Assembly (NCBI RefSeq): GCF_030684315.1
Contig: NC_081396.1
Location: 4,836,001 to 4,900,000 of the forward strand
Direction: 5' to 3'
DNA from: Stegostoma tigrinum
Taxonomy: Eukaryota
Length of the DNA stretch: 64,000 nucleotides
The notes under the pieces are model-generated. The model had not been told where the DNA came from, made no database searches, and saw only the letters and a list, made by a program, of their open reading frames with translations. How positions within the stretch are numbered: position 1 is the stretch's first letter; each line of letters opens with the position of its first letter. Shown piece by piece: positions 1-57,649 of this stretch. Position numbers and translations under genes: made by a program.

Positions 1-245
1 CTTGTCGACCATTGTCACTTTCCATAGATCGGTAATAGCTGATAGAATTGCATTCACTTGAAAGAAAATTCTCTCCAAATGACCGCCCTTCTATCTCTCC
101 ATGACTGTTTCGTCATCCAGGAAACACTCCCGGCATTTTTCTGTAAAGCTATTTACTCTCAACTAATTTCTGGAATGAACCAAATAATCACTCAACCCAT
201 CGAGAGTTAGAGATGGTTCACAAATTCTTGTTATGTCAGTGACAT
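1..245 (-). pseudogene. Degenerate TCR alpha/delta-like V segment, cut by the window start
   Basis: The minus strand reads LYRKMPGVFP (WYRQxPG-like), RNSHGEIEGRSFGENF and, across frameshifts, AITDLW..SDNG (FR3-like). Stops and frameshifts are present; the YYC motif and RSS would lie outside the window. Confidence 0.4.
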
Positions 246-3200
246 CTACGTCGGATGAAAACATTTCTTAAAAGCAGTTGATTTTCCAAATACACAGGCA
301 GAACTTATCGGTATTTGGCCTTATACCATAATGTACCTTCCAGATTCCCTTTCATTTCGTAATGCAATTGGTATTAATACAGTTAACTGCAATATAAAAT
401 ACAAAGACAGATTTAAAAACAAACGAGAGTGCCAGTTATATCTAGCTCATCACTAATGTTATCAAATACAAGTAATTGCAATCAACCCCAACTATTCGAA
501 ACTATAATGCTGTTCAGCCATTTAGTTCACTTCCCCGAAGCTATCTAATAATCGTTCATTGTGTCGTTTGACAAGAATGGATCTGCCACAGCCTTGAAAA
601 AAGGTATTAACAAATTCTGCACCAATGATTTTTGATCAATAGAGTTTCAAAGACTACAAGCGAGTTGATATCCATACTTCTGCGTTCAATGGGCATTTAC
701 TGATTTCTCAACTGTGGCCAGTAATTGCAAAAGAGGTGAAGTGTTTTCCCCATTTATTATGGCTGGATGATTAACGTTCATACATGTTTGAATGAGCAAC
801 CCAACACCTGTTCAAATTCAAGACTGTGAAAGCCAATCCTGTCCAAATAGGGCTCTTTACTAGTCTCATAAATATCCCCAAACTTTTACAAATGAAATTC
901 CAGCATTCCTTCAATAACGATCATCCATCTACATGACTGCTGATCTGGCTTCATTCAACACATTGCACACATGTATCATGATCTTTGTATGTTTGTTTTC
1001 AACTCCATTTGCACAAAACCGTAACAGTCTGTTAGTTTTCCGAGGGCATTGTAGTTCCTGTATTCTCACATTTTACGATTTTTGCACGAGGAAATTCTGA
1101 TGCTTCTGCATCTCTGTTTCCACTTTACTCTTGCTGAAATAAAACACATTTAGACAGCATGGTCTGTTTGGTACATCTTTACCAATTCATTTAACATTAT
1201 CTGTCTACTACAACTTCCTCGTGTCCTCTTCACAGCTCACAATCCTACTTATCAATGTGTGTTCGCATTTTATCAAGCACTCTTTTCGCGCATTCAATCA
1301 AGTCATTTAGAACTATAAAGCCTTGAGGCAACATTACTGATCATTTGCCACAGGATTAATTGAATCTTGGAAATCAGAAAAGCACTAAATTATGTTTGCT
1401 GTTTAGTCCAAATAGGCTAGCGAATAGTTGATCTGTTCCAAGGAAACACCACTTCATTATGAACTTTTATATTCTGCAACAAACTTTGATGTGACACTTT
1501 ATTCAATGTACTTTCAGAACACAGATGGAAAATTAGTCATTTGAACATAGCATTGTGAATACAAGAGGGTTGAAACCATTTTTAAAATTGTGTAAGAGCT
1601 TGCTTCTCCTGCAACTGATGGACAGTCTGCAGTCACAGTCACCTTATCTCATTTCAGACAGGTCGTGCTTCAAAACTTTAACAGACTTTGATCAGCAATT
1701 ATCGTATTAATTCACACATCAAGATCAGTGATAAGAAATGACCTTGTCTTGGACTCTATTTTCGTAGGTGCCTATGACTTCTAGATATCTATGTGCTGTT
1801 GCTCCTGTATGAACTGCGTAAGTTTATAAGTCAAAATTCGACAATGAACAGCAGGCATGATTTTCCCATTCCGAAGTAATATTGATTCCACCTAATACTT
1901 TCTAAGTTCTCTGGTATTATTTCCGAAATAATAGCTCCTAGCATATTGCTTGTGCCAGATCTTAAGTTAACTGAGAAGCAGTTTTCTGCTTTCTGTATCT
2001 CCTCCTTTTAGTAAATAACTTAAATTCATGATCTTCTAATCTGCTGGAGCATTCGCTGAATCTCAGGAATTTTGGAAAATAAAAACTAATGAATGAAATA
2101 TTTATCGATTCACTTCTATTCAGATCTCAGCATAGGGCTCATGCAACAAAGAGTTCCAGAAATTTGCTCAGGAACACTTCAATAACGCTTGTAATGTTAT
2201 TGCTACTTTAACCTTATTTTTATTTTCCTGATTTATCCATTATTTCTGATGTGCCACTGATATCTTCGATCAGAGGGATTGTAGTAGAATCCCTGCTCAA
2301 TTAACTCTCCTTCTCCTCATTTTTAGCGGTTTTACTGACTCATTTTCAGCGGGAGAAACATCCATATTGTTGACTCTATTTTTAAGGTAAATGAATATTA
2401 CCTCTGTATGCTTAATCTTCTGAGTTAATTTTCATTCTTTTTAAGTCTGATACGTTCCTCTTTATTTAATTTTTCCTCTTCGAGTTTTCCATATTCTTCC
2501 CAAACATGTGATCTATCACTTCTGCAACAATATAGATTTTCGTTTAGTTTGGTGTAGTTGTTTTATTTTCAAAGGCCGATTGCGACTCTTTCCTTTTTTT
2601 CACTTTACAGAAATTATCTGCGTGCTATATTACGCAATATGCTCTTAAAAGTCTGTTTTTGCTCCTTTGTTGACAATTCTTCCTCATGATTTACCAGCTC
2701 AATGCAATTAGATCTGTTATCGTGTAATCACAGTTGTCTTTATTTAATTTGGTAATACCCGCCTTAAGCCCATTATTTAAGACCTCAGAACACATACAAA
2801 ATTCATGAGATGTTCGGTGCTACCTAAGGTATTACTTAATATAATTTTGTGGCATGCAACCAGATCCAGGAACTCTTTCCTCTTTCTGTCAGAAAGTTAC
2901 CTAATACACTCAGTCAAATAGACAATGTCTCTTACAACTCAAAAGCAACAGTATCTTGCTTCTGCTTGAAATCATACATGAAGAGAAAGAAAAAACACCA
3001 AAATATTACCAGAGGAGATCAGCGGCAGAAAGATCTGTTCACTGATACAACCTCTCCTTACTTTTTACCTGACATAGCGCCGAACTTCCTTTAAGTTTTA
3101 GATTTTCATTCTGAGGTTTTTGAGCGAAACTTATTATCATTTAGCCCTTTGAACATGGCCAACACTCAGTTTTTATTTGGTTTTTCTCTCACAGTTAACA

Positions 3201-3940
3201 TTATGTAGTTCAAGTACTCTAATGTGTTTTACGTTGTACTGTTTTAAAAAAAAGGGAATGGAATAGAATACAGCGTTGAAACCAACAGCAATTTGCACAT
3301 TTGCTCCGAAAGGCTGACAGTGTGCATTCTCCCTCACAAGCAGGAAGTTTGTTTGCGCTGATAATATGAAAGTAACTCCCGTTGTCTCACTCCCATCTGG
3401 CACACAATGTCCTGTTTCTCTGTGCCGTTGCCAAGCCACACATGTCACTTCTGATTAGAAAATTAATCTTAAGAACAATCTGGAGGAAACATCTGCCAAG
3501 GTGGCCTATATCTGGACAGAGAGTGGGCAGCCATCGATCACACTGAAGTGACAAATACAAATTGAAGTGTTGTGGTCTGTTTAAAGTTTGATTCCAGAAT
3601 GTCGTTGGGTGAGTCTCAGGACCATGTACTAAACGCATTCTATTCTCTAAATTCTGAAACACATAGATTGCACCGTTAATGTTTTGATCATTTATTTTTG
3701 TTACTTTTTTGATGATTCCATGTTCCTTTCATCAGTTTCAGATTCGTATCCATCATGTTCCCATCCAGATACATTCTGTTTGATGTCATTCCGAGAATTT
3801 AATGAATATTCTTTGCACAGACAGCTGTGTCGGTGCATCCGATAACAGAATTAATACACATAGAGAGCCCCTTTTCTTTACCCACTGTGAGCATCATTGT
3901 ATTCAAACAAAAGCCTCTGCGGAGGGTCAGTGACTCAATG

Positions 3941-4235
3941 ATTAGCACTGCCAGTGGTGCTAGGCACCCACATTCGATTCCATCTTCAGTCGCCTGAGAG
4001 TGGGGAGTCTGCACGTTTTTGCCATTTCTGACAGCTGCTCCAGTTTCATCCCACAGTTCAAAGATATGCACGTTAGGTGGATCAGTCATTCTAAATAGCC
4101 TATAGTGTCCAGGGTTGTGTAGATTATCTGTGTTAGCCAAGGGAATAGTCAGGGTGAGGCACCTTTTGGACAGTTGCTATGGGTTCGATGGGCCAAATAG
4201 CCTGATCCCATGCTGTAAGGATAATACTGTATTCT
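3941..4235 (+). mobile_element. tRNA-derived shark SINE (HE1-like), degenerate
   Basis: Similar to the better-preserved copies at 15321 and 26008 (ttagcactg...ttcgattcc head; gatatgcacgttaggtggat core). Confidence 0.7.
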
Positions 4236-4589
4236 AATTTCATAATTTGGAAATCCTCTCTCTCTTTGACCGAATTTGTTCTCAAGGTTGCTTATTGTCT
4301 GAATTCTTTTGAAAAGCCATAACTACTTAAAAATCCGTACTTTGAACAACGTCTCAAATGTTATTAAAATTTGTGGTAATGACATTTCCTTTGGTGGGAT
4401 TCTGGTGTTTAATCTTTCTATGCATCATGTGCTTCTAGCCAAAGATTAAAACACTGATATCTCCGAGTTACCTGCTGTGGCCCTTGAGTGTCTCTAAAAA
4501 TTGCAAGGTGTTGATAAGCACCAGAAGGAACAGATTGTTTTTGGTTCCTATGTCGTTAGTTCGTTGTTTTTTTCGATTTTGTTTTTGGA

Positions 4590-6050
4590 AATAACCGACT
4601 CTGTTTGGCCAGCAATACTGCCCAATCTTAGTTGCCCTTGAGAAGGTGATGGTGAGTTACCCTTTTATACCACTGCAGTCCAAATTGCCATAAATGAGGG
4701 TTTGCCAGTATATTGACCCACTGGCATCAGATGAACTGTAATATATTTACAAGTCATGATGGCAAGTGGCTTGGTGGGGAAATTGAAGGTTGTGGTGTTC
4801 CTGCTCTTGCCTTTCTTGATGGAAATGGTCGAGGGTTTGGAAGGTGGTGTATGGGGATTTTTGGTGAATGTTTGCAGTTCGACTTGTAGATAATACATAC
4901 TGCTGCGAATTAGGCTCAATGGTAGTGGGAATGGATGTTCGTGAATACCAATCAAGTGTGCTGGATGGTGTAAAACTTCTTGAGTGTTGTTGAGGCTGCA
5001 CTCGTCCAGGCAAATGGGGAGCATTCCAAAAACCTCTTCAATTGAGCCTTATAAACATTGGACAGGCTTTGAGGAGAAGGGAAGTTACTCCCGACAGTAT
5101 TCCCATCTTCTCACTTGTCTTTGTAATTACTGTGTTTCTATGGTAAGTTCAGATGTAATTTCTGGTCAATGATAAGCCTCAGGATGTCGATGTGAGGGAT
5201 TTAATGATGGTCTCACCGTTGAATGCCAGGGGCCAGTGGTTAGATCGTGTTTTATTCGTGATAATCATAACTTAATATTTGTTTGGTGCAAATGCTACTT
5301 GGCCCTCGTCAGCACACAACTGTATATATTTCAAATCTTGTTGCATTTGAAATGATATGCCTCAGTGTCTCAAGATTCCCGAATGGAACTGAACATTGTG
5401 CATTAATCGTTGAACATCCCCACTTCTGACTTTATGATGGAGAGAAGGCCATTGATGAAGCTGATGAAGATGCTTGTGTTTCAGATATTATCGTGAGGAA
5501 CTCCCGCAGAGATATCATGGAGCTGAGATGACTGATCTCCAACAACCGTGACTATCTTCCAAATTGTCAGGTGGGAATCCAACCACCAGAAATTTAACCC
5601 ACACATATGTATTGATTTCAGTTTTGCCAGGGCTCTTTGGTGCCAAATTCTGTTGAAAGCTGCTTTGACGTTCAGGATGGTCGTTATCACCTCACCTCTG
5701 GAATTCAGTTCTTTTGTCCATATTTGGACCAATGCTGCAATGAGTTCAGGAGCTGAGTGGCCCAGGCTGAACCCAAACTGGGCATCACTATGAAGTTCAC
5801 GACTGAGCAGGTGGCGCTTGATAGCATTGTCGATGTCACCTTACACCACTTTACTGATGGTAGACTGTAGACTCATGGGGCTGTTATAGGCCAGATTGGA
5901 TTTAGCCCGCTTTTATGTGCATGACATACTTTCGCAATTTACCCCATTTTTTTGATAGATATCAGTGTTGTAACTGCATTGGAACAAGTTGGCTCAGAGA
6001 GCAGCAAGTTTTGTAGCACAAATCTTTAGTTCTAATGCCGAAATGTTATC
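4590..6050 (-). mobile_element. CR1/L2-clade LINE reverse transcriptase fragment
   Basis: ORF 5481-5732(-) reads WTKELNSRGEV..LNVKAAFNRIWHQ...SAGVPH, matching decayed RT motifs (D.xKAFDRVWH, GVPQGS). Confidence 0.8.
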
Positions 6051-8329
6051 ACATGGAGACTAGGAAAAGATGATGATGGAAGATTTCCTTTCCTGAAGGA
6101 CATTAGTCAACCAGATTGTTTTATTTTCAACAATGAGCAATGAATTCACAGTTATCAGCAGACTCTTCAATCCAGAATGTTTTAAATTCAATTCAATTTC
6201 TACCATCTTTTGGGGAGGGATATATCCTCAGATTTTGTAAACTCCAAGACGACTCTATGTCTGTTCTCCAGTTGTGGGGTAAAACACAATTGTGATGCAG
6301 ATTGTGTCAGTTCTAACCACGTCAGTATTGAGGCTCTCACTCAACTTGGGCCATTTTAATGGACCTCTGATTATCACTGTAATAATGTGCTCTGCCTTAA
6401 ACTGTCAAAGCCTTCTTGCCCTTTAATTTCCTTTTAAATTCGGATGTATATTATGTTCACTGCTTACTAGATGAAATATCAGTGATAATTATTGTCATTC
6501 CAGGTGCATTTGCATACTTCCTTGGGACGTACAGATTCCTTCCACATCTCCACTGAGAGAAATAATATTTTCTGAAGTAACGGGCTGGTATTTTAAATCT
6601 TCTATGATCCATAGGAAACCATACTCTTTTCGAAATGGACAAGCTACAAAGAGAAGACCTGTCTTTCATTCCTTTCACCTTTTCTCACTGTGAAAGAAAA
6701 TGCAAAACAAATCAAATCAGAATTCAATATATTATACCCTTCCAACGTGAAAGTTTACCCACAATGTACAATCAACTGAATAATAAGCCTCTTGCATGAC
6801 AATGCATCCAAATTCTCGAATACGGTCTGACCGTTTCCAGTTTTTAATGCCCGACTATCTCGTACAGCTGTTGGAAAAGTGAAATGTCAGAAACATATTT
6901 TTAAATTCAGTGACGCCAATTTTGATGAAGTGTCAGTGCTTTGTTTCCTTCAGAGATGAGACGTGACCTGCAGATATAATAATAATATTTTCTCTTTTTC
7001 TTATTTTCTGGTATGAGGGGCATTAGGAGTGTTATTGAATTTAAAAAACTTCAATTCATTAATGTTGAAACAGTATTTGTTTGTGTTAAATGGAGCATGG
7101 AAAGAATATATTAATGGGCTTTGACTTTCGCACATAATTATATCAGGCAGAAACTTGACTTTATTGCATGAAACACTGACTTTGTCATCATCAAACTATA
7201 CTCGGCGCAATGTTAAGTAATGCATTGAAGATTCTCTCTCTGATATTTCAACAGCAAATATTATGTTTGTTCCAATCAACTTCACTGTTGCATGTGTCCA
7301 CTCTTATTGTGTCAGAATCTATCACAGTAACTTCAAAACTTCCATTCAAATGTGACAGCAAATTATTATTACTAATTCTGCAATCTTTGTCCTTGTCAAA
7401 TTTTAACAGGCAAGGAGTTTGAGGCAAAGATCAAATTTAACTCTACTTCTTTTTCTCCTCCCCAAAGACATGCTTCAGATGTAATTTTACACAATATGTC
7501 TTCAATTATCAGTGCACAACGACTTCTTCATTCCAAGTGTATATTTGACTCTTGGTCTATTATTTCTGGTGGGGACTTCTCTTTTTTTTTCTTTTCTGCA
7601 GCTGTAATTTCATGACATTGATGAACATATCTGTAAATATCTGTGGTTAATCAACATTAAATCCTGCCGTTGCTCTTATTGTCGTAGTCAGCATCTATTT
7701 TTATATTACCCAAGATTCCTTCCCTTTGAATACAGAATTTGCCTTTGTCATCCTTTATATCACACCAGATCCTATTGTTGTTGTGAGCGTGTTGGAAAGC
7801 CTTTCTGCTCATATTACGCCAGAGCCAGACCTGTTTAACCAACGATTGCACAGAACAGACAAGAACAGTTGAGTCAATCATGAAAACGAACGTGGAATAC
7901 CTCTAGTTGACATTCCGAATACTTGGATCATAATAACATAAATGGTGCAGTGTAATGTGAAATCTGCCAAAAAAGCAACAATAAGAACAATAACTGAAGT
8001 AGATCCTCTTGTAAAAGAGTGTGATGGATATGATTCACAAAAGGCAGGGGGTTGTTTTAAATTTTCATTTTGGAACCTTAAAGTTTAGTATTAGCCACGA
8101 CATGATTCAGCAAAGTCTTACAGAAGGACGGTAAATCAAATATAAAGAGGATTTTAGTTCAATGTTGTATGAACTGAGACTGAGCTTTTAACAGAAACAA
8201 CTGAGAAATGACCTGCTTTGACATGATCAAAGTCAAGGTTTGGTGGAATGCATTGTTGCTGCCAATGCTGTTAAAAACATCCATATTAGTTATATCATGT
8301 GGCATTTGAGTTGCATGAATAGAATTACA

Positions 8330-8700
8330 GGGTGTTTTTGAACACATTATGCACCGTTCGACCCTTCTTGTCTCCTTTAATCCTCTGAAAAGCCAATCAC
8401 TTTGATTTTTTCTTAGATAATGATCGAATTGCTTCTTGATATATACAGTTTCTGTTGCCGGTGCTATACTCTCGATCAGTATTTTCCAGAACCGAGCTGC
8501 GTATTGTCTTCTGAGGCTTGTCTTCTTCATATTTGCTTTTGCTCTTTTGACAATTACTTTATTTCGGTGCCTTGTACGTCCCGATCTTTTCAGAAAGGGG
8601 AACATTTCCCATTTAACTCTTCGGGCAAGCCCCTCATTATTTTGAACATATCTAGCAATCGTTTCTCATAGATTTCTCAACCAAAGGAAACTGCCCCAAT
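8330..8700 (-). mobile_element. CR1 LINE 3' end fragment
   Basis: ORF 8159-8605(-) contains RTRHRNK...RQYAARFWKIL...ETVYIKKQFDHYL, a decayed CR1 ORF2 C-terminus. Confidence 0.6.
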
Positions 8701-11029
8701 TTCTACAGCATGCCATTTAATTGAAGCCCCTTGAGTTGATGGGCACATTTGAATCTTGAAGGCATGCTTGATATCATGCCTTGAATTTCTGCCCAAAACT
8801 GATCCCTGGGCCCAAGTGAGGCCGCACGAGTGTTCCATATAGATTTTAAATATATTCCTCCCTTTTACGTGATATTTCATGTATATTTGTGTTCATTCTT
8901 CTGTATTGTATCACCAAGCTCTTCCTCCCTAAATTAATCAAGGGAAAAGCCTCTGCACGAAATTTCATGTGTCGCCTGTTGGCCCAATCCACTCAATAGA
9001 TCCTTGTGAAATTTCGAACTATCTTCCTTCAGTTCAGAATTGTTGTGACATTCTTGTTATAGCAAATTGTGAAGTAATGCACTGGATGCAATACCTTAGT
9101 CAAAAACATAAATGAAACCAGTCACAGGTCGAAGCATTGTCACCTCCGGAATAGCGCTATGAACTCCTCTTGAATCCATAACACACTCAACTGCCCATTA
9201 TGATCCATGATTTCTTGAATTTGCGCGAATGTTCAATTAAACTTTGAAGTACATATGGACCACAGCAATTAGATTAGGGCAACAACTAGTGTGTTAATCC
9301 CCAATAAGAAGCAAACAAATTTGTTCACATGAGAAATCCATCAACGATAATTTGAAAAAAATCATTTCCAATGATATGAGGGCTCATCTATCTTCTGTGC
9401 AGAGTTTTGAAACTTAAGTTATGTTTAATTGCTGATGAACCGAGCTTATTTGTGTCAAAGTAAGTTGAATGCTGTTAACTTTGTTAATTCTATGTGCTGA
9501 CCTGCGCTGAATAAAGAGATGTTTCCATGGGTATCACATGGGGAGATTCAGATCATTATATTGCTGAACAGTCATAGTGTAATTTTGTTGAAATGTGATA
9601 TGACTTAAATGAAAGGTAGGGACATTTCCGATATAAATCAGGTGAACTGGAGCCTCTAACCTTGACAAGCATAGATTTAGAGTTACAGAAAATGTCGCCA
9701 CAGCGAGAAATCGCTTCTCCCATTGGGTCTGTGCAATCTGAAAACAGAAATTTCAAGCTTAGGCATACTGTGTAGCGTATTGTCCAAAATACTGGAGATT
9801 ATAGCACTTGAAGCACATCTTCAAACACATTTGACTGTTCCTGCCTTCAACATTCTTTTAGGAACTGAACTTCTTAAATCTTCCCTGTCACTTCGTGGCC
9901 AATCACGTATATCTAAACACATTATTAACTGAGCTATCCCCGATGTTATGAGGTTTCTCTCATATATTTCATCCAGCATGACATATGCGTACTTCTCAAG
10001 AAAAATTCCTCTAAAATACCCGTGTTCAACCACGACCAAATCCAACGAAACTAAAATTTCCTCTTTGTTTCTTTCTTTTTCCCAATCTCAGCATAACCTT
10101 CCTAATCTCGCTAAAAAAAATTATATTCTTGCCATAATGATCTGTACGTCTGTGTATATGTTCGTACGATGTCTGTGCTGGTGTGTTAATTTATTTTAAT
10201 TGTTATTGTTCCTTCTTGTTCTCGTGAACATTAATTGATAGCTCATTGACTAATCCTACAACAGGAATGGTGGAAATGATTCGTTATTCCCGAGTATATT
10301 TGTCAAAATATTGCACACATCCAGAATGATAAATTGGACTTTATTCATAGTAACTTAAATGTAGCCGAATGGCACACATGATTGTTCACTGCTGTTTGTA
10401 AATCTTCATCTCAAAAATACAAATAGGGGACTTGCCTGGATTCAGAAGGAATCACACCAAAATTTCGAACATGTGGTTCCACCATATACAACACAACATT
10501 CAACATATATTCATCCACTTTACTTTTCACAGCAAAAATAGTGCACATCTTTAGAACGATGCCTGATATGCTTGTACTGTGTTACTGTGGCATGTGAGTG
10601 AACAAATTGCCTCTTCTCACGCAGTTTCCCTTCTGTTTTGAGATCTTTTGATTGTAGCGCGCCTGGTATGTTAGTGGGGTATGCCTCAAACAATGTATCA
10701 ACATGAAAATATTGAGGAATAACCTGTTCAGAAGATTCAAGTTTAATTTCATTGAAAACAGTCCATCCTTTGGAATGTTTCAGGGTTAAGAAATATAAAC
10801 AGTTTTTATTAATCAGAGATTTCTGAAGTGTTTTCTTTTAGGGGCGAGAACAGAAGATAACAGACTGACACATTTTTTAATGATTGACCTGCCTCAAGTA
10901 GTGAAGCCAGCAAACAAAAAAATGGAATTTTGAAGACCATTTATTTTTCAGGTATCCATAAATCATTCGATCTATCCATTCATGCATCCACTCATTCCGT
11001 TTGTCTGTATCAAATTCTATTCATCTATC

Positions 11030-11770
11030 TAGATCACATGGCATTCAGGATGAGCTTGCCAATTGGATGTACAATTGAGTAAATGGCAAGAGACAGCCAG
11101 TGGTGGTGGAGGGTTCTTTTTTCAACTGGTGGCTTGTTTCCATTGATGTTCCACAGGGATCGGTGTTGGGTGAACTTTTGTTTAACATTTATGTGAAAGT
11201 TTTCGATGAGAAACTCGAAGACATGGTTAACGTTTTGATGGTTGAGGTCAGAATTGCTGAGATAATGGACAATGAAGAACGTGATTTAAGATTACAAAGT
11301 GATCTTGATCAATTGGATCAATGGGCTGAGGAGTGCAGATGGAGATCAATAGAACAGATAGACGTAGTGGTTCGGGATCATATTAATTTGGCATTGGCAT
11401 CGTAGTATGGTTAAGAAGGTGTGTAGCAGGCTCGCCTTCATTGATATTTTTATTGAGTATAGGAGTTCACAAGTAATGTACAGGAAGTTGTGGTGGCCTC
11501 TTCTAAACTAATGCATCCAGTTCTGGCCTACTTGTTGTGGGAAAAATAATATTTACTTAGAGAATGTTGAGAAACTATTCCCCAGGAGTATGCTTGGAAT
11601 GGAGGGCTTGGGTTATTAGGAGCGACTTATGCATAAGAGCATAAATCAGAAAAGTTTTTTAAGGCTATGGGCTAAGCACAGGCAGATGGATCTAGGTCAG
11701 TTTGAGATTACAGTCAGCATGGACTGGTTAGACTGAAGTATCTGTTCCTGTGTCCTTTGAAACACTGAAT
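11030..11770 (+). mobile_element. CR1 LINE RT fragment
   Basis: ORF 11100-11405 reads VVVEG..DVPQGSVLGELLFNIYV...LQSDLDQLDQWAEE. Confidence 0.85.
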
Positions 11771-13389
11771 GTCTATCCATCTATCTACCTACTGATATAT
11801 CTCAAAATGATAATGAGCTGTAGCGATCCTCCAGTGAATTCATATTTCCATCGTGCCGAAGCTCTGCAAATGCTTCCTTTCGTGAGAAATCCACACAACT
11901 GAAAAATAAACTTTTCTCCGATAGTATTGCTGGTATATTTGTTTATGCAGAGGTAATGGGTATATTTTGAAGCTGTTTTGAAGCCAAGCGGTCAACAGTG
12001 GTGAAAAATATCTTTGAGTTACTGCTGAAGCTTCAAGTGCTTCCAATACATAAATCTTCAAACTCTAGGATATTTTCTGCAGTTGGCTTGATGGCTGCTG
12101 GACATTGTGGCTGACAGATTAAATTCATATGAATCAATTAAAATGAAACTACTCCAAATTTACTTTATTTCTTTTCCAATTGGACACAAAGGATATACAT
12201 CACTTGGCATGTCTTCCGTGAAAGAGTTCACTGAGTACAGCGTTCACTGTGTGACTTTGAAAAAAACTGTAAATTTACTGTGTACCAGTAATTTCTGTTA
12301 CTTCGAAATAGAAGTCATTCTAGTTCGCTGTTTATAAGCTAGTTAGCTGTTTATTGAGATTTTAAAGCTCTGGAATGTGAAGTCAATGTATCCAAATTCG
12401 CATTGCAATGGCATTCGTTATCATCTCAAACGAAACTATATATTTTTTTCAAATTCACATAGATTGCTGAACCATACGCTGATCGTTTAAACTGAGTCAG
12501 CAATTTATAAATGTTTGGCGCCGATTTCGTGTAATGCTTAATTTCTGCCCCGGTGTCTATTATTTAACAGTGCCTGTCAGAGCTACCAATGAACAGAGAT
12601 CCGACCTGTTTTTAACCTGCATCAGTGGCAATCATTGTAATACTCTCGAACTGACCATACACTCATGATGTATCTACACAGTTACCTGCAATTATTTGGT
12701 TGCTGGGGCGGTTTTGTATTTTTTTAACTTATAGACCAGCTTGTTTTGATTCCTTAGATTATCTTTCAAAAGATTACCTGAGTGTTATGTTTTATTGACA
12801 ATTTGCCGTTTATTTATGAAGGTTTCCATGCCTGTGTATTTTCAAATGATTATGTTGGACCATAGCAATTTGAAAAATATTAAAGGAGAGGCATTCTTCA
12901 ATGTAAGGATCATTTTTCTAATCGCTGAATTTAGACTGTTTCGTCACGTACAGCTGTATTCTAGACATAATCATTTTGGACATGTTCCGTACTAAGTTGC
13001 CGAATTTGAATTCAGAAACGTCTGTTGTGAATTATGCTTTTTTCCTGTGTCTGACAGAGACTTGGAGTGACTACAAAAAGTAATTTTATTGGATGGTAAT
13101 ATTATTTAACATTTTAAACGATTAATCTACTTGTCAATGAAGTTCAAGAAATAAAGTGAATTCATTCCGAAGTGGAAATTTTACTGTCTTAAGTAAAATA
13201 ATGAAAAACGTTACCTGAACAGTACCTCATGCTGTTTAAGTATACTTTCACCACTAAAACTATGGAAATACGTCCAATTAATATGTACACCAAAACAAAA
13301 ATCCCAGGATGGAAAAATGTCCATGTTAAAGAGTAACCTCAGGTAAATATATTAGCCCATCTGTGGGGGCTGTAGAAGGTTGTACGACA

Positions 13390-13554: not shown

Positions 13555-13600
13555 ATGATAACGACATTTTTTCTGAGTTTGTTCCTGACTTTCTTATCAC
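13555..13600 (+). CDS. IgH V leader exon (MITTFFLSLFLTFLS)
   Basis: ATG at 13555, hydrophobic 15-aa peptide, phase-1 donor gtgagc at 13601 and a 124-nt intron. Confidence 0.93.
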
Positions 13601-13724: not shown

Positions 13725-14046
13725 GTGTTCAGTCAGATGTTACTTTGGTTCAACCAGAGGCAGAGAGTGGCCATCCTGGTGAATCCTTGAGGCTGATCTG
13801 TAAAACCAGTGGATTCGATCATGGCAGCGCCTACATGTACTGGATCCGACAGGTTCCTGGACAGGGGCTGGAGTGGATAGTTTACTTCTATAGTTCATCG
13901 AGCAATAACTACGTACCAGCGATTAAAGATCGATTTACTGCTTCCAAAAACACTTCACACAACATCTTCACATTGGACATGAACGGCCTGAAGATCGAAG
14001 ACACCGCTATCTATTATTGTGCAAGAGACTACAGCGGTGGGTATAG
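13725..14046 (+). CDS. IGHV: IgM VH exon germline-joined to D (VD or VDD)
   Basis: After acceptor ttctgaag it reads (R)[30 protein letters not shown]...[14 protein letters not shown]...RFTASK...[13 protein letters not shown] then DYSGGY. Both canonical Cys and the Trp are intact, and a 12-RSS follows directly. Confidence 0.92.
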
Positions 14047-14074
14047 CACTGCAATTATGATCAATATAAAAGCC
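14047..14074 (+). other. 12-bp-spacer recombination signal sequence 3' of VD
   Basis: CACTGCA + attatgatcaat (12 nt) + ATAAAAGCC. CAC is intact and the nonamer matches consensus at 7/9. Confidence 0.8.
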
Positions 14075-14406: not shown

Positions 14407-14445
14407 ACTTATTGCATAACCACATCCAGGGAATGTAACGTTGTG
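14407..14445 (-). other. 23-bp-spacer RSS of JH (degenerate)
   Basis: The + strand reads acttattgc - 23 nt - cgttgtg abutting J; on the - strand this is CACAACG (5/7) and GCAATAAGT (5/9). Confidence 0.7.
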
Positions 14446-14493
14446 ACTCTTTTGCTGACTGGGGACAGGGAACCATGGTGACCGTGAATTTAG
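14446..14493 (+). CDS. IGHJ: JH segment (SFADWGQGTMVTVNL)
   Basis: WGQG motif and phase-1 donor gtaag at 14494. Confidence 0.93.
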
Positions 14494-25249: not shown

Positions 25250-25250
25250 C

Positions 25251-26338: not shown

Positions 26339-26638
26339 TGACACCGTCTTCCCCGACACTTTACGGTCTATTCTCCTCCTGTCAGCAACACAACACTGAC
26401 GGCTCTGTGATTTTTGGTTGTTTGGTGATGGACTATTCCCCTGACGTCACCACTGTGACATGGAAGAAAGATGAGAAGCAGATCGCCACTGGATTTAAGA
26501 CATACCCATCAGTGAGAAACAAGAAGGGAACTTACACCCTGAACAGCCAGTTAGCCCTGACAAGATCAGATGCACATTGCGGAAAAGTCTACTGTGAGGT
26601 TCGACACAACGGGTCTGAAAAGAGCATTGGAATGCAAT
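26339..26638 (+). CDS. IGHM: IgM Cmu1 exon
   Basis: tttcccag acceptor and gtaagt donor, 300 nt. Reads [42 protein letters not shown], a C1-set domain with the putative L-chain-binding Cys. Confidence 0.95.
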
Positions 26639-28023: not shown

Positions 28024-28338
28024 GTTCATCACGTCATGTCACTCCGACTGTTCTCCTAACTGTGAGTTCCAGTGAAGAAATCGAGAGCAGAAGATTTGCA
28101 ACCATTGTCTGTTCAATCATTAACTTTAATCCAAAGTCAGTCTCCGTGATTTGGCTGAAGAATGGAAGACGCGTGCATTCTGGCATCTTCACTTCTCCTG
28201 TGTGTGAAGCGAATGGAAACTTCTCAACGACCAGTCGCCTCAGAGTCCCTGATGTTGAATGGTTCGACAAAGCAGTCTACACATGCCAGGTCTATCATGA
28301 AGGATTCATTCAAAGTCAGAACATCAGCGGACCTCAGG
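28024..28338 (+). CDS. IGHM: IgM Cmu2 exon
   Basis: ttcttcag acceptor and gtaag donor, 315 nt. Reads [23 protein letters not shown]...[14 protein letters not shown]. Confidence 0.95.
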
Positions 28339-30522: not shown

Positions 30523-30828
30523 TTTCAGCGTGCCGTGATTACACAGCTAAAATACTACCGCCACCAGTTGAACAGGTCTTACTGGACGCGACAGTGACGT
30601 TAACCTGCATTGTGTGCAATCTTCATTTTGAAGCCAACTTCACCTGGATAAACAACAAGAAGACTCTGAAATCAGAGACTGTTGAACAGTCCAGACAGAA
30701 TTCTGAAGGTGTGATCAGCAAATTAGATATTTCTACTGAAGCCTGGCTGAGAGGGGATAATTTTGAATGCGTGGTGAACCATCAGTTTCTGCCGACTCCA
30801 CTGAGAGACTCCATCCACAAGGAGAAAT
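30523..30828 (+). CDS. IGHM: IgM Cmu3 exon
   Basis: cattgcag acceptor and gtgag donor, 306 nt. Reads ILPPPVEQVLLDATVTLTCIV...FTW...EAWLRGDNFECVVNHQFLPTP. Confidence 0.95.
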
Positions 30829-31278: not shown

Positions 31279-31670
31279 TGATATATCCACTGGAGCCATC
31301 GGTGTCCGTCCTCCTGCCAACGACAGAAGAAGTCTCCACACAGCGGTTTGTTTCACTCACCTGTTTAGTGAGAGGTTTCAGGCCCAGAGAGATCTTCGTC
31401 AAGTGGACAGCCAATGACAAGCCCATTCATCCCAGTAACTACAAGAACACCGAGGTGACGGCAGAGAGCAACAACACCTCATTCTTCCTGTACAGCCTAT
31501 TATCCATTGCAGCGGAGGAGTGGGCCAGCGGTGCTTCTTACTCCTGTGTGGTGGGACATGAAGCGATTCCATTCAAGATCATCAATAGAACGGTTGATAA
31601 ATCCAGCGGTAAACCGAGTTTTGTGAATATTTCACTTGCATTGATGGACACCATTAATTCATGCCAATGA
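31279..31670 (+). CDS. IGHM: IgM Cmu4 exon plus secretory tailpiece
   Basis: Reads [26 protein letters not shown]...[38 protein letters not shown]. The tailpiece has the NIS sequon and penultimate Cys; an internal donor (g|gtaaac, 31609) serves the membrane form. Confidence 0.96.
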
Positions 31671-35617: not shown

Positions 35618-35745
35618 ATTCGAGAGATCATGATTGGATTGAAGACGTTGACGATGATAACAGCCACATCAGGACAACTGCTTCTACATTCATTACCTTG
35701 TTCTCCCTGAGCATCTTCTACAGTGCTGCTGTCACGTTCGTGAAG
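35618..35745 (+). CDS. IGHM: IgM TM1 exon
   Basis: ttcatag acceptor. Reads DSRDHDWIEDVDDDNSHIRTTASTFITLFSLSIFYSAAVTFVK (acidic spacer plus conserved antigen-receptor TM motif), followed by a gtaag donor. Confidence 0.93.
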
Positions 35746-35886: not shown

Positions 35887-35895
35887 GTTAAGTGA
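35887..35895 (+). CDS. IGHM: IgM TM2 exon (VK-stop)
   Basis: ttttttcag|GTT AAG TGA completes the KVK cytoplasmic tail. Confidence 0.92.
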   Translation, partial: VK

Positions 35896-37803: not shown

Positions 37804-40800
37804 GAATATAACCTAAAAATATAATATAATCATTACAGTACAATGGCTTCTCTTCATTGTGAGTCCAAACGTATGACAGGAGGATAGTGGACTTAATTAA
37901 TTCTGTCCCACACAAGAGGCAAGTAAACGACTTCACCCTCATATCGCTGTTCTGATGATTTCCCAGGAAGAAAGGACAATCGAGTTCTTGACTGCAGTGC
38001 CCCCATATCCATGGACATTCTGTTGTGCTGGCCTCCTTATGAGTGTGGTCATGTTTTGCAAGCCTGGGTTAATAAATAAATATAATCCCACAATTCTTAC
38101 ATCACCACAGCTTCTCCATTTTGCCAGTGTTCTCTTGTCTCTGTAGTTTGACTGATCAGTTGAAGTCTCCTTTATGCAACGAACACTTAGTTTCCTGTGA
38201 ATGCAGTTATTTAAATATATATAGTCAATTAAAGCCCTTTCCAATTTCAGTGAGGTAGAAATCTCTCACTTAAATGCATGTGTGCCTCATAGAGTTTGCT
38301 GTCACATTGATCTTTGAAGTGTTATCGCACAGACAGAGCAGGCAAATATTTAACATCTATTTATAGATCAAGGATATTCAGGTCCAGATAACTCAGGCTA
38401 TTGTCAAATTTTGACTCATTGTTTGGGTTGCATTTCCCATCTGGAACTTGCACAGTCTACAAGATGAGTTTAAAAAAGACATCAATATAAGTACAGGATT
38501 TAACAAACAAGTCTTTTGAGACAATACTAGTTTTTGTGGGTTGAGATCCAAACTCATTATTTTTTTCACCAGGTCACTGACCACTTGAATGTTTCTTCTC
38601 TAGCTCTACGAATTGACAGATTCGTTTGGGTAAATTCACAAAATGCCTTGGTATTTTTTCTGGATTTCTCTCTCACTCCCTGCTCATGTTCTCATGGCAC
38701 ATCGCCTAAACTCAGAGTCAGGTATCTCAGAGTAATGTTAGGAAACTGTTGCTGACACAAAGGCTTCCACAAAGCAGTAGTTCTGTCACAGAAATGACGT
38801 TTGAAGGTGTTCTCACTAAGATAGCCGCCAGTTAGCCCCATGGGTGATACACATGACCCGAGAGGCTCTTATTCTGGGCCTTAGGCCTCACCCAAGAGTT
38901 TCCAGTCCTACTAACTTTGAAAAACTCCTCAACTGGAGGCAGTGTTATCTTCTCTTTCAGGTCTGGCCTCATTCTTCCACCACATGATCTGCAACCCGCT
39001 GCGCATGCTCCAGATAACTGTGGGGCTTGCATGAATGATGGCAGCTCCATGCAAATGGGAATACCTAAGCAGGAAGAGGGCTGTGAGCCAGAAGTGTTTT
39101 TCAGACCAATTGGGTGCATGATGGGTGAGGCTTATCTCGTGTGTCGCTCATTCATTGAAATTTTCCCTCATTTGGAAACCTAATTTGCCTGACACTCCGT
39201 GATAAAACTGGATCTTTCTGTTGGTGGGTTTAAAAAGATGAATGCCTGTGAGGATGAAGCAAGCGTTTCCACATACGTTACTGAAATGAGGGAACATAGT
39301 GAAGTAATTTATAAAGAACTGGAGCACTGCCTAAAAGAAATAAACACAGAGAGAGTAGTGTTATATATCATTCCAACAAAAGTCAAAAATTCAGAAGTAG
39401 AAATTGACTTAGAAACTGAGCAGGTCTGATTTCATCTTTGGAAAGAAATCAATCTCAATATTTTAGGCCCAGTGACGCTTCTTCAGAACTAACGCCAGCT
39501 GGAAATAGACTTCTGTATGCTAAAGGAAGAACGATGTGCAGTGGATGTACATGGTTCCATTTGGTAGGATAGAGGTAGGTAGCGAAAGAAATCAAAGTGA
39601 ACGCAGATGAGCATAATGGTGAGCCGAGGAGCAAAACAACATGATAATAGGGACCATTTCGTGAAAGAAAATGGGTTGTCAGTGATGAAAGAATCTCGTG
39701 TGGTGACAGGGCCAGGGTTTTGGTAGTAGGTATAGAATATGAAATGAATTGATCAGGCTCCAAAGCTATGCAACTCAATATTAAATCATGAAAGTTGCCA
39801 GAACGCCATTGGCCAATCAATAAACAATTCTGAAATTATCTCAGCATCCTCATCCACGTTTCAACCCTGCCTTTGTTAGGTAGAAACAATAAATTGGGCG
39901 CCATCATCCACCACCTTCATGGCTTCATACAATTGGTTGTTTCCTGGGACACATCTCATTGTGTGTCACAGGCAAAGCACCCAATGCTTCGTTATGATTT
40001 TGACCCCTGCTATCTCCTGTTCAAAAATGTGTATCTCAAGCATTCAGAGCGGCATAAGTTTCTGCTTTAAAGATACATTGAATTTCATCACTGTTATTCG
40101 CATGGCACAGTAACAAACTGTAGTAACAGTGAGCTACAGACACAAGATCGATGAAGTGAGGATTTTCGTTCTGATTTCAAGCGCTGCAGAAGAAAGGGCT
40201 TTTGCACAATTTGTTTTATCTTAATTATCACTGATATATTTTATCAGTGTAAACTTGCTGATAACAATGTGAACAATCGATGTTTCATGCGTTGTCATTG
40301 ATACAATATGAAGTAATTGTTTTTCCTTCTTGCTTAACTTTTGAGCACAGGAGTGGTGTGACAGAATCAAGGCTCAGACCTGAAAAACATGTTTTAATAG
40401 TTTAGACATGGCCATTTTAACAAGACAGGTATGTTTTTTTTAGTTAAAGAAGTTTTTTAAAAATCGAATCGGGATGCCAATTATCTGTCAGAAATGATGC
40501 AAAAACAAATTTCCCAGTGCAGCTGTGACACCATTCAGTGTTGTGCTGTATTTGAGACATCGTGATATGCAAGTGTCAGTGCCAGTCGAGGAAAAATAAT
40601 TCAGAAGTTGAATAAGAATTAGAAACTTAATACGAGTGTTTAACTTTGCATGAGTGCTGACTGTGCCAGCTCTAGAATGTCTACTCTGACAAGTGAATGT
40701 TGTTTTTTTATTAATTTTCTACTTCAACTAATGGAACAATGGATGTTGTTTGTCTATTTCAACGCAAACTGGTCATGATCATTGGTGGCATCAATTATTG

Positions 40801-46604: not shown

Positions 46605-46845
46605 ATCTCAAGAATGAAGCCGTCACTCACAAAAAGAGGAAGGAGATTTCACTTTGAAGTGCACCTACGCTGACAAAGCGTATTCCTTCCTTAAGCCAAG
46701 TCAGTGCCCAGGCAGACAGCCGAGTTTGCAGTCTTGAAGTGCAAGAACGACGATGCTGAACTGAAGGTGCATTTCGCTCATAACGTTTTTTTTTTAAATA
46801 GTCCAGCAGTCAGACAATTTGTGCCAATTGTCCATCTCCGGAAAC
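46605..46845 (+). pseudogene. TCR Valpha-like pseudogene fragment, no RSS
   Basis: After acceptor gtgttccag it reads DLKNEAVT../EEGDFTLKCTYADKAYSFL..QCPGRQP/EFAVLKCKNDDAELKVHFA../VQQSDNLCQLSISG across frameshifts, and is truncated before YYC. Confidence 0.65.
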
Positions 46846-47122
46846 CTTGGACAATAGTTGCTGGTTTTTCTGTGTCACAGAATTATCCCATCACTTATTG
46901 CATTTTATTAAATATTAAATCAATATAAAGTGAGGTGAGGAAAGCTTTCCCACTGCTGCACCTGCTGGTCTTGGTTTGTAAATGATATTAGTTCATTTGA
47001 AATCAGCACATTTGGTATGATGTGAGAAAATAATTGTTACTTTCTACTCTACGAACTCTTTTGTACTTTGTTATATTGGGACAATGTATTTTCCGAGGCT
47101 CAGTCTGGTCCCTGTGACTGTG

Positions 47123-47409
47123 TCTCTCAGCCCACAGAAATACACTGCAAAGAATTTTAGCCACAGATCTGCAATGGTGAATTTCCCCTTATTTTTCGAA
47201 CTATCCACAGATGCAGATCATTGAGCCACAACTCCTTCTGCTCTCATCACTTTACCACATGAAGTACATCAAGAATGTCTGACATTTACCAGGTCGCCGA
47301 CGGTACAATTGCAAAGTATGCATATTAATTCTAGTCGAAGAGCTGAAATAAATGATCACCAAATCTCCTTCAAACCACATCACTGTAATCGGCTTCTGTG
47401 ACATGGCAT
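47123..47409 (-). pseudogene. TCR Valpha/delta-like pseudogene
   Basis: After acceptor tttgtgcag it reads DAMSQKPITVMWFEGDLVIIYF..QLYRRRPGK../AEGVVAQ*SASVDSSKNKGKFTIADL...AVYFCGLR. The first Cys has become Phe and the Trp Leu, with a frameshift and a stop. Heptamer CACAGTC follows (47122-47116) with a weak nonamer. Confidence 0.8.
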
Positions 47410-48330: not shown

Positions 48331-48369
48331 AGTGTTTGTATTGGCTGACAGAACCATTGTGTCACTGTG
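48331..48369 (-). other. Near-consensus 23-RSS
   Basis: CACAGTG (7/7) + 23 nt + ACAAACACT (7/9). Confidence 0.9.
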
Positions 48370-48812
48370 GCGTCTCTGTATAAAGTGATAGATGGCGGAG
48401 TCAGAGAAATGAGCAGCGGCATATTTTGAGGAACTGTTTTCTTTTCATTGTCCAGGGGAGCATAAACCCTTTTGGCCAAATCCGGAGATGTATCTCCCTA
48501 TTCCTTGCCAAATCCTCTCAGTAGTTTTGTCGGAGCATTCACGGGATATTGGATGCACCAGAAGAGAGTTGGAGCAGTGGACAATGCTGTGTGATTACAG
48601 TTGAGGATTACATGCGATCCATCATGAAGCGTTTTGTTAATGCGAATCTTGGTCACTTGTTCCTGCAAATGACATGTAGAAGTCGTCAATATTTGTGGGT
48701 TTAGCGGCTTTTGCTCAGACTCACAGAATTCACAAACATTATTGTCAATAAAGCACATACGTAGAGCAAGTTGTCAGCATGATCACAGTAAACAACGCAC
48801 TCTTTAAAACAT
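48370..48812 (-). pseudogene. TCR Valpha/delta-like pseudogene with leader relic
   Basis: Broken leader at 48812-48761 (LKSALFTVIMLTTCS, gtatgt donor). The V exon from 48662 reads GTSDQDS../LHDGSHVILNCNHTALSTAPTLFWCIQYPVNAPTKLL..*..LDNEKKTVP/AAHFSDSAIYHF, with frameshifts, a stop and the second Cys lost. Confidence 0.85.
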
Positions 48813-54420: not shown

Positions 54421-54422
<2 letters not shown>

Positions 54423-54473: not shown

Positions 54474-54477
<4 letters not shown>

Positions 54478-55128: not shown

Positions 55129-55171
55129 GTGGAGCTACCATACTTTTGTCTGATCTTGATACAGGCCTTGG
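55129..55171 (+). pseudogene. Orphan antigen-receptor-type leader exon with GTG start
   Basis: GTG GAG CTA CCA TAC TTT TGT CTG ATC TTG ATA CAG GCC TTG G|gtaagt encodes (V)ELPYFCLILIQAL. A 77-nt intron leads to ttgcag|TC TCC GCT GAT (VSADIRAL*QS); the downstream exon is decayed. Confidence 0.45.
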
Positions 55172-57649
55172 GTAAGTAAAATTGTTGTTCTCAATTTACC
55201 ATTCTAACAGTTCTTCATGGGTCTTCAGTCTCTTTGAGCTAATTGCAGTCTCCGCTGATATCAGAGCTTTGTAACAGAGCCGGGAGCAATCTACCTCTTG
55301 AACAGTTTTGAGGCGGTGTGAAGGAAAGACTGAATCTGGACAATTGACTGAGGGCTTTTATGGAAGATGAATTCTTACCTCCATAAGTGCCAATGTAAGT
55401 CTTTTGTCCACAAAGTAATCTAGAGTCCCTCCAGCGATCCTGCTCACATCACCAAGTTGTTAGATCTCTTAGCTTTCAATGAACCTCAGTGTCCGGTGAT
55501 AGGTTCAGCTCACCTTCATTGTGATTTATAGGTTCAGATTTTCATAGCAAATAGATGCACAAGAAGTTTCTAAGTAGTTTATTTTGTACAGTTTAAGGTC
55601 AAATCACAGCACTGCCCCCCGCCCCACTTTGTTTACTATTGGTCACCAACGTTGAGTTGTGAACTTGTAACTGGGCTGTTTTCTCGATCCTCCAGAGGAA
55701 GTATGGCCTCACTCAGCAATTTCAATGTAAACACTGTAGTCAAATACATTCTTTCCCACGCATTTACCAGCTGCACAATGTTAACAGCCAACTCATGGGA
55801 TACTTACCTATCAGATAGGGACCTTTTAAATTCCTTAATAAGCTAATTTCAGGAAACACAAAACAATATTGATGCTTATGAATTGTTATAATTCCATTCC
55901 AAAAGATTATGTAGTTTCATCAAATGATCAAATGACAGGATTCTGTAGCTGAAAAGTTGTGAATGTATTGATTGAATAGGTCAAGAGAGATGAGGTGATG
56001 TGTTCTTATCTATGTTTCATGCTTCCAAAACTGCAGTTGACATTGAGTCTACAGAGCTATTATTGTTCTACTTGTGAAGACTACATTATGCAGGTCTCTT
56101 CCTAAACTCTTCAATTACTGTCAGCCACTTTCTGCTGCATTAGCCATGGGCCACCATTGGCCATTTTCTGCTGTTCATTCATAGGCAGCGCGATAAACCT
56201 GAAACAATGAGTTTTCGTATGGAACAGGAGATCCAACTGTCTGTTCAAAGACGTAAATTGCTCTCCAGAGGAAACGAATCAGTTTCTGCAGAAAACTGAT
56301 TTCGCAATGATCCAGACTGGCTCCAGTCCAACATCCACTCTCCACTAACACAAGAAACTGTTCAAAAGAGAAGTTGCCAAAAGCTACAGAGACAAGCAGC
56401 TACCCCTCATTATCCATCAGCTATCCTATGGGATCAATAAACCATTCTCGCCTGTCAAGACTCTTAGGCTTGTTGTATCTGTTTAGCTCATGCCTCAGTT
56501 TTGAATTGTTCCTTCTCATTAAATTACTTTAATATCACTGGAGCTTGAACATATTTTAGTTAATCTATGACGTCAGGAGGCTAAATCCTACAATTGTGGT
56601 TCGGAGTAAGATCACAGCCATTGAGTTCATCGTCTCATAAAACATTAGGTTTGTTTAAACATAAATCGAAAAGGTCTGGAATAAAATCTACTGTATACAA
56701 TTGCATTGAAATATCACAGGATGCAACTGATAGCCTGAATTTTAAAGTAGGCAAGTAGGAGCGAGAGAGATCCTGGGAAAAATAGCAGATTGTGACAAGT
56801 ATTGCAAATTATTTCTACTGAGTTTCTAAGCACAGTGAAAAAGCAAATATATTTGGAACAGTTTCCTAGAAAGGTATAATTTGGATCAAATGAGGATCAG
56901 GCTATTTAGATACCAATATGAGAAATGTGGCAGGTTTATAAATGATCTCTAGAAAATGTCCACTGGAAAAAAAATCACCATAACATGGTAGAATTTCGTA
57001 TTCAATCTGATAGAAAGAAATTGGAGTCTGACAGAATTGTGCAAAAGTGAAACAAGACAGTTACAAATGTTTGAGGACAGAGTTGTCTGGAGTGCACTGG
57101 GAAAAGTGTTTGGCATAGAAGACAGTTGATGGACCACGACAGATATAGAACAGAAATAATGATGCATATTATTGAAATATCCATTTGAGGAAGGACGAAT
57201 CTGGAAATGGGCAAATCAACCATAATTAACTAGGCAAGCTCAGGATTGCATCATATTGAAAGGTAAAAGATATATCGTGGCGAAGATTGGTGGTGAACTA
57301 AAGGAATGGGAAAGGTTTAAAGCTACCAAAATCTGAGCAAAAATATAATAAAGTTGAAAATAAACTCTGAAGATAAATATATAAAAAAGGAGGATCGAGC
57401 CAGAGTGAACAAAATGTTTAATGGATTTGAACAGATGTCCTTGTTCTTTCACCATTACTGGCTGAAAACACTTGAACTCTTTACCCAATAGTATTGATGT
57501 TTTCTGGTTTATTCATTCATGGGATGTGAGCATAACAGCCCGGTCATCCTTTATTGTCCATCCATATTTGCGCCTCAGACGGATGGTGGTGATCAGCCTT
57601 CTTCAACTGCTGCAGTCTTTGGAGTGCAGGGACACTCTCTATGAATTAT

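Follow-up and report, generated by a model that had tools for sequence, protein, structure and literature searches.

The DNA analysed here, 64,000 nucleotides from Stegostoma tigrinum (the window), contains an IgM gene close to decayed V segments resembling those of T-cell receptors (TCR). This raises the question of whether the gene is an intact V-D-D-J-C cluster inside an active mixed B/T receptor locus, as the original prediction held, or an IgM gene of another kind that happens to lie beside dead TCR segments.

An open IgM gene with VH fused to D

The IgM gene is real: the leader, VH, JH, CH1 to CH4, the secretory tail and two membrane exons are open and spliced in frame (Table 1). With one leader-VH, one JH, four CH exons, a secretory tail and TM exons, it has the composition of an elasmobranch IgM minicluster. 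Its secretory form (J-CH1-CH4-secretory tail) comprises 452 codons up to the stop, the membrane form 477 codons. The VH matched a Chiloscyllium punctatum VH at 72% and fell inside the VH clade of our tree with support of 100/100, and a PDB search placed CH4 with its tail closest to IgM C-mu4, Ig heavy constant mu occupying ranks 3-8. JH is the sole J motif in the 64 kb window. An atlas search returned generic C1-set names only. Although the non-coding DNA of paralogous contigs differs by about 15% (35/226, 37/230), no coding exon or splice site of the IgM gene is broken, which points to selection until recently, or still.

The locus retains one D-to-J join and is not an intact V-D-D-J cluster. 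The predicted intactness thus held for the exons, which are in phase, but not for the V-D region: VH is joined directly to D-like sequence, an RSS scan found no 23-spacer signal at the VH 3' end, and a lenient scan between 14075 and 14406 found no convincing separate D, only three weak matches with six mismatches each. In an unjoined minicluster, VH, D1 and D2 each have their own RSS; here, V is fused to D in genomic DNA and JH is separate, as in partly germline-joined IgH genes, with ~415 nt between the V end and JH. The junction measures only ~16 nt and fits VD or VDD, i.e., one D or two, and two reports describe both VD- and VDD-joined germline genes in sharks (PMC2193156, PMC5192425). The post-D heptamer lies 399 nt from JH. 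According to PMC2435157, two-join products in nurse shark measure 809-832 bp and three-join products ~433 bp; the distance observed here matches this gap of 376-399 nt, which supports the fusion.

Table 1. Features of the IgM gene and of the TCR V relics in the window (RSS, recombination signal; mismatches are counted against the consensus)
Feature	Position	Strand	Basis or match
Leader exon of the IgM VH (split leader, phase 1)	13555..13600	+	sequence; leader+V open
VH exon, open, without a 23-spacer RSS at its 3' end	13725..14030	+	RSS scan, homology, tree
Fused D or D1-D2 junction, ~16 nt, boundaries approximate	14031..14046	+	sequence; identical 427-nt X1 contig across
Post-D 12-spacer RSS; heptamer 3, nonamer 2 mismatches	14047..14074	+	homologous read-through in P0007, P0010
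JH 23-spacer RSS; heptamer 2, nonamer 4 mismatches, 3 more than paralogous contigs	14407..14445	-	
JH, WGQG motif, GT donor	14446..14493	+	motif and splice site
CH1 exon, open	26339..26638	+	
CH2 exon, open	28024..28338	+	
CH3 exon, open	30523..30828	+	
CH4 exon and secretory tail, penultimate Cys; membrane-form internal donor after 31608	31279..31670	+	
TM1 exon, open	35618..35745	+	
TM2 exon with stop	35887..35895	+	
TCR alpha/delta V relic, new relative to the original prediction; 1 frameshift, 2 stops, 23-spacer RSS with broken CAC	40057..40379	-	33/90 identical to P0134
TCR alpha/delta V relic; 3 frameshifts, RSS unrecognisable	46605..46873	+	34/83 identical to P0164
TCR alpha/delta V relic, family without first Cys; one frameshift and one stop, 23-spacer RSS decayed	47084..47409	-	44/96 identical to P0185
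TCR alpha/delta V relic; one stop and one frameshift, 23-spacer RSS at 48369 near consensus	48331..48662	-	43/93 identical to P0026

Judged by the depth and assembly of one sample, the V-D fusion is likely inherited, not somatic. The X1 contig across the junction spans 13841-14267 with 0 differences at a depth of 8.4, similar to the neighbouring identical X1 contigs (11.1, 9.5 and 6.5). Run X1 possibly comes from the same sample as the window assembly. All four runs containing the stretch are from one sample; the bisulfite runs of other samples, X5 and X6, yielded 16 and 9 reads at the locus, none across the junction. It is extremely improbable that a somatic rearrangement of lymphoid cells was caught in the assembly. 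The single sample would fit such an event, as would the frequent occurrence of VDD-J as a somatic intermediate in thymocytes of nurse shark (PMC2435157); against it, the contig across the junction matches its single-copy neighbours in depth, somatic junctions, being diverse, would not yield a single majority sequence on assembly, and C. punctatum gene models carry similar fusions. Two of the five C. punctatum VH gene models (P0007 and P0010) run into the same post-D signal, with differing junctions.

Both remaining signals are farther from consensus than those of their homologues, while each retains the critical CAC. The post-D signal deviates from its homologues at nonamer position 7, and the residues of P0007 across this signal allow a consensus nonamer; on motif alone it is weak, as 31 sites in the window match equally well. 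At position 14440 of the JH heptamer, six paralogous contigs differ from the window, and two contigs have a nonamer nearer consensus. An 18-nt insertion splitting the JH heptamer was considered and rejected, since the paralogous contigs are collinear there.

TCR alpha/delta V relics downstream

Allowing for frameshifts, we scanned the whole window with 218 V domains; the highest control scores were 60 for the reversed window and 56 for the shuffled one. The TCR-like V relics predicted at 46605(+), 47409(-) and 48662(-) were borne out, scoring 107, 183 (vs P0185) and 185, respectively, and a fourth was found at 40379-40096(-) with a score of 88. From their sequences, we classify all four as TCR alpha/delta-type V pseudogenes. 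The references that match them best are V domains of sharks, spliced to a C region that also occurs on P0124 and P0125, two chains of the two-V NAR-TCR type; this C region is therefore C-delta. The nearest shark V family is different for each relic, and a 23-spacer 3' RSS accompanies three of the four, near consensus at 48662, decayed at 47409 and 40379, and absent at 46605.

The relics differ in how readily they were detected. A single-frame HMM search gave a clear result for the 48662 relic only (38 bits vs 3.3), all 42 PDB matches of which are TCR alpha or cytotoxic-TCR chains; a word-index search returned no candidate for it. When only an initial set of 28 references was used, 46605 and 40379 stayed at background (53 and 47 vs 52-54), and they rose above it only after shark C-delta-linked V domains had been added. 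Four NAR-TCR-type V queries gave no match in the window. When its first 52 residues were searched against the PDB, the 47409 relic matched mostly light chains, albeit weakly (best E 4e-4); a light-chain identity was rejected, as P0185 aligned over 96 residues at 46%, and the two have the missing first Cys and the LQLYR motif in common. The phylogeny called for by the prediction was run with a reference set free of light-chain V: none of the four relics fell in the VH clade, and starred support was obtained for two of them, the 47409 relic pairing at 100/99 and the clade of the 48662 relic reaching 100/97, while 40379 and 46605 formed long branches without it.

Other proposed V remnants scored as background in the 218-domain scan and in a repeat scan with 19 queries (controls 49-58): 1-245(-) reached 46 and 32, respectively, 52367(-) reached 41 and 31, and the exon behind the 55129(+) leader 45 and 40. 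By eye, the 55129 stretch reads as a phase-1 leader exon, but with GTG in place of ATG. Further weak matches at 10141-10215(+), 21601-21972(-), 27060(-), 57775-57909(-) and 62565-62715(-) were rejected, being within or 1-2 points above the control maxima. Upstream of the IgM gene (1-13400), there was no clear excess over controls, with a best score of 61 vs 60 for 218 domains and of 50 for 19 queries; the match scoring 61 has 12/24 identities in a Cys-rich stretch. The idea that relics bracket the IgM gene was therefore abandoned, as all four supported relics lie downstream. What stands of the mixed B/T receptor locus is the presence of TCR V relics beside an open IgM gene, in keeping with the antigen-receptor complex known from sharks; two-sided flanking is not supported by the window.

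Alternative readings of the locus

Our preferred reading, to which we assign a probability of roughly 0.6, is an open-frame IgM minicluster with a VH-D fusion that likely goes back to an old germline RAG event, and which lies just upstream of four broken TCR alpha/delta Vs, likely in an antigen-receptor complex. Expression would require one further RAG join, of the post-D 12-spacer signal to the JH 23-spacer signal, which would remove ~400 nt and restrict diversity to a single junction. Given the drift of both signals, RAG would likely perform this join inefficiently, and the cluster is probably little used or at an early stage of decay; the intact exons and splice sites and the CAC retained in both signals speak against this. 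Since TCR D and J segments carry 12-spacer signals, a VH that now ends in a 12-spacer signal would be barred by the 12/23 rule from TCR-delta D and J, and would not take part in the IgHV-TCRdelta joining invoked in the prediction. The TCR V relics would be stranded members of a long V array that decayed independently and would be functionally unconnected with the IgM gene.

An intact V-D-D-J-C cluster inside an active mixed locus, its VH lendable to TCR-delta, is highly improbable. The four relics do lie only 4-13 kb from TM2, and trans-rearrangements are common in sharks (PMC12227049), but VH lacks a 23-spacer signal, no upstream relic exceeds background, and the 64 kb window holds neither a TCR C match better than E 0.06 nor a TCR J motif. 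A working one-step IgM gene is a possibility that we regard as doubtful, though not negligible: pre-joined V-D(D) and a single D-J join would be expressed, perhaps mainly in pups, and the C exons could also serve the V regions of other clusters. The open, in-phase exons and the CAC kept in both signals favour this, as do reports that genes joined in the germline show early expression (PMC4279169, PMC2193156) and that IgM clusters switch among themselves (PMC6795676). The drift of both signals, which in the post-D nonamer affects position 7, speaks against it, and so do six of seven VH differences from paralogues that alter the residue (unpolarised, and among the matches listed, 40 of 199), although this is a weak point; in addition, joined H genes of horn shark went undetected as transcripts (PMC2193156). 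In the RNA-like run X8, with contigs on V and J exons only, none of 30 contigs was at least 95% identical to this gene, a count of contigs that cannot show absence and that we weigh neither for nor against expression.

It is unlikely, though compatible with our preferred reading, that the V relics and the IgM cluster together form a duplicated block moved away from the TCR alpha/delta region, so that the Vs died for want of a reachable D, J or C. All four TCR Vs in the window are broken, and IgM clusters of the bamboo shark lie on seven chromosomes (PMC8692893); however, IgM/TCR V interleaving over ~9 Mb in the great white shark makes a transposition unnecessary (PMC12227049). Very unlikely, finally, is a selected role for germline V-D joining as a fence for IgM clusters inside the TCR alpha/delta V array, in which swapping the 23-spacer for a 12-spacer signal would bar VH from TCR-delta D/J and tie it to its own JH. 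Such joining would have been repeated in carpet sharks (three junctions: this gene, P0007 and P0010), with joined clusters enriched near TCR Vs. The present locus raises the question of whether pre-joined clusters are over-represented beside TCR V segments genome-wide; if so, germline RAG activity would help separate B- and T-cell repertoires.

Comparison with known shark receptor loci

The locus is an ordinary new example, since both IgM/TCR V mixing and half-joined genes have already been described in sharks. It does correct the annotation of an IgM that gene models would call intact, its V and D being pre-joined and its signals drifted. In great white shark, catshark and stingray, TCR alpha/delta V genes and pseudogenes are known to be interleaved with IgM clusters (PMC12227049, text and Table S1; Flajnik et al. 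2025). Over the ~9 Mb of the great white shark, the interleaved TCR V genes include pseudogenes and the same chromosome carries TCR alpha C; on its chr 27, the 70 kb after an entry 'IgM pseudo?' contain one TCR V plus two pseudogenes of TCR V, and a three-V group occurs within 3.5 kb; for catshark, an 'IgM (gj)' is listed on the same linkage group (PMC12227049). The elasmobranch AgRC is further characterised by linkage to TCR alpha/delta D, J and C, PSMB5, UrIg2 and other IgH isotypes (PMC12227049); of these, the 64 kb window contains no TCR D, J or C, no PSMB5 and no other IgH isotype. Our locus resembles it as an IgM minicluster beside TCR alpha/delta Vs in mixed orientation with pseudogenes. 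That table consists of NCBI gene models, whereas the present analysis adds RSS anatomy.

With partly germline-joined shark IgH (VD-J, VDD-J, VD-DJ), as described in PMC2193156, PMC5192425, PMC4279169 and PMC6795676, the gene shares a genomic V-D fusion, a separate J and a full C region. These papers describe such clusters mainly from horn shark, and as canonical IgM they are reportedly absent in nurse shark (PMC5192425); the present one adjoins TCR V relics.

An IgH-type V near TCR alpha/delta V segments also recalls the IgHV-TCR-delta donors and TAILV of nurse shark. A TAILV or IgHV donor is an IgH-like V with a free 23-spacer RSS and without its own IgH J-C. Those of nurse shark are said to join D-delta by this free signal, in work attributed to Criscitiello 2010, Deiss 2019 and Ott 2021. 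In contrast, the VH studied here is D-fused, has lost the 23-spacer signal and has kept its own JH and C-mu. Germline joining in an IgM is likewise seen in nurse shark IgM1gj, which is fully VDJ-joined and lacks C-mu2 according to PMC4279169, whereas here JH is separate and four CH exons are present.

The IgM gene and its V-D fusion

All statements on the locus are confined to the 64-kb window. As originally predicted, the coding frames of the IgM gene are open: an unbroken frame of 452 codons runs from J to the secretory stop, and the open frame of the membrane form comprises 477 codons. The C exons have AG acceptors and the internal exons GT donors, each CH domain keeps its Cys pair, and CH4 with its tail shows closest likeness to C-mu4. 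The VH was matched best by a Chiloscyllium punctatum gene model (72% identity), and homology with the model P0007 from this species reaches from ~1 kb 5' of the leader to beyond D. At the former distance, 12558-12629(+) aligns at 62% with exon 1 as predicted for P0007 (24 residues); it probably represents non-coding sequence conserved as part of the cluster unit. No octamer was found near the VH leader.

Coordinates of the IgM exons and of the additional TCR alpha/delta V relic
Feature	Position	Strand	Remark
IgM leader exon	13555-13600	+	
VH exon	starts 13725	+	
JH	14446-14493	+	
CH1	26339-26638	+	
CH2	28024-28338	+	
CH3	30523-30828	+	
CH4 + secretory tail	31279-31670	+	
TM1	35618-35745	+	
TM2	35887-35895	+	
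V relic 40379	40057-40379	-	Fourth relic, not in the original prediction; 4.2 kb behind TM2

The cluster had also been described as intact, which is contradicted at the VH 3' end: an RSS scan found no signal there, and ~16 nt of D-like sequence (one D or two) directly continue the VH, followed by a 12-spacer signal (14047-14074). Thus, the IgM gene is not an unjoined cluster. With three heptamer and two nonamer mismatches from consensus, this post-D signal is weak as a motif (31 equal or better sites within the window) and was identified by homology. Two of the five C. punctatum VH models, P0007 and P0010, continue into the same post-D sequence, each after a different junction, and the P0007 residues over the signal are, by back-translation, compatible with a consensus nonamer. 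One paralogous contig starts precisely at 14047. The distance from the post-D signal to JH, 399 nt, is as expected for one intersegment, judging from the nurse shark products in PMC2435157 (809-832 bp after two joins vs ~433 bp after three).

The fusion is likely inherited. A 427-nt contig from sequencing run X1 (13841-14267) covers the junction with no difference at a depth of 8.4, next to identical contigs with depths of 11.1, 9.5, and 6.5; a somatic junction, being one among many, would not assemble in this way. This coverage comes from the X1 sample only, possibly the window's own (all four runs containing the stretch derive from one sample); reads of two runs from other samples fell outside the junction. 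P0007 and P0010 appear V-D(D)-joined with differing junctions, and P0008, from the whale shark, has a complete V-D-J join; judging from these gene models, germline joining seems to be recurrent in carpet sharks. In the region 13450-14750, the intervals 14029-14552, 14034-14330, and 14141-14330 are each missing from a single paralogous X1 contig, a hint of more joined or deleted clusters in Stegostoma tigrinum.

Several repeats were observed as well. The J-CH1 intron holds a 280-bp inverted repeat (19120-19399/19663-19941, 96% identity), likely a non-autonomous DNA transposon. Young copies, 95-97% alike, form inverted pairs at 23895-24639 and 59317-60172, and the intron between CH4 and TM1 contains an insertion (31990-33370) that carries long open frames; we regard these as candidate Penelope-type retroelement ends.

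State and use of the remaining D-J join

RAG would have fused V to D in a germ cell, a mechanism stated for sharks in PMC2193156, and left D-J open, such that completing the IgM gene in a lymphocyte would take a single 12/23 join. The JH signal (14407-14445) carries two heptamer and four nonamer mismatches from consensus. Six paralogous contigs depart from the window at 14440, in the consensus direction, and the loose-end consensus of two contigs gives a JH nonamer with two mismatches; overall, the signals have thus drifted from their homologues at ~5 of 32 positions, near the non-coding divergence among paralogues of ~15% (35/226, 37/230). CAC is retained in both signals. Six of the seven VH differences from paralogues listed (among 40 of 199 rows, unpolarised) alter the residue, a weak sign. 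We consider it probable, at roughly 0.6, that the cluster is little used or was only recently released. The main rival, a working one-step IgM gene, would fit the ~1850 coding bases without stop or frameshift, which count against decay; we regard it as rather unlikely.

Since the spacer is 12 nt long in the signals 5' of TCR D and in those of TCR J, the fused VH would be lost as a donor to TCR-delta chimeras. That germline V-D joining acts as a fence of IgM clusters against TCR-delta is, in our view, highly improbable. The TCR V relics are probably members of the long alpha/delta V array running between IgH clusters and would have decayed independently, their fate not being tied to IgM.

TCR alpha/delta V relics behind the IgM gene

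When 218 V domains were locally aligned to both strands with frameshifts allowed, four peaks stood out besides VH: 48662(-) with a score of 185, 46605(+) with 107, 40379(-) with 88, and 47409(-) with 87 (control maxima: reversed window 60, shuffle 56). The 47409 relic reached 183 with P0185, initially excluded by the domain filter as its first Cys is missing. The TCR-like relics predicted at 46605, 47409, and 48662 are thus well above the controls. The weaker candidates 1-245(-), 52367(-), and 55129(+) scored at background (46, 41, and 45; 32, 31, and 40 in a second scan). All four relics lie on one side of the IgM gene, 4-13 kb behind TM2, and do not bracket it as had been proposed.

Identity was 43/93 for 48662 with P0026, 34/83 for 46605 with P0164, 33/90 for 40379 with P0134, and 44/96 for 47409 with P0185; each relic bears 1-3 frameshifts and 0-2 stops, and three retain a 23-spacer signal. 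These database proteins are unnamed V-J-C chains sharing their C start with the two-V chains P0124 and P0125; because NAR-TCR is a TCR-delta chain according to PMC12227049, we take their C as C-delta. All 42 PDB matches of the 48662 relic were TCR alpha or cytotoxic-TCR chains. In a 45-row tree, from which light-chain V were absent, the relics fell into four separate TCR V groups and none among VH; two were starred (100/99, 100/97), and the other two formed long branches. Neither a TCR C (best E 0.06) nor J motifs besides JH were found in the 64-kb window. The predicted mixed locus is partly supported, its underlying observation partly confirmed.

The post-D 12-spacer signal (14047-14074, +) and the near-consensus 23-spacer signal of the 48662 relic (48331-48369, -) face each other; were they joined by 12/23 deletion, JH and the entire C region would be lost and the product would be unproductive. 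CRE-like words precede the relics 46605 and 47409 (at 46476 and 47781). A leader-like phase-1 exon (55129-55171, +) starts with GTG and has an acceptor ~80 nt on; no V exon above background follows.

Comparison with other shark loci

Partly joined clusters are stated in PMC2193156, PMC5192425, PMC4279169, and PMC6795676. Our literature search, mainly of non-subscription papers, found none that describes carpet shark V-D(D)-J clusters joined in the germline and neighbouring TCR V relics. TCR alpha/delta-type V exons between IgH clusters were described by Flajnik et al. 2025 (PMC12227049). According to its Table S1, IgM genes alternate with TCR V and pseudogenes of these on great white shark chr 27 (8.6-17.1 Mb), IgM lies among TCR V in the stingray, and in the catshark TCR V lie near IgM, of which one is marked '(gj)'. 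The arrangement of IgM plus TCR V is hence already known, and this locus adds one more case.
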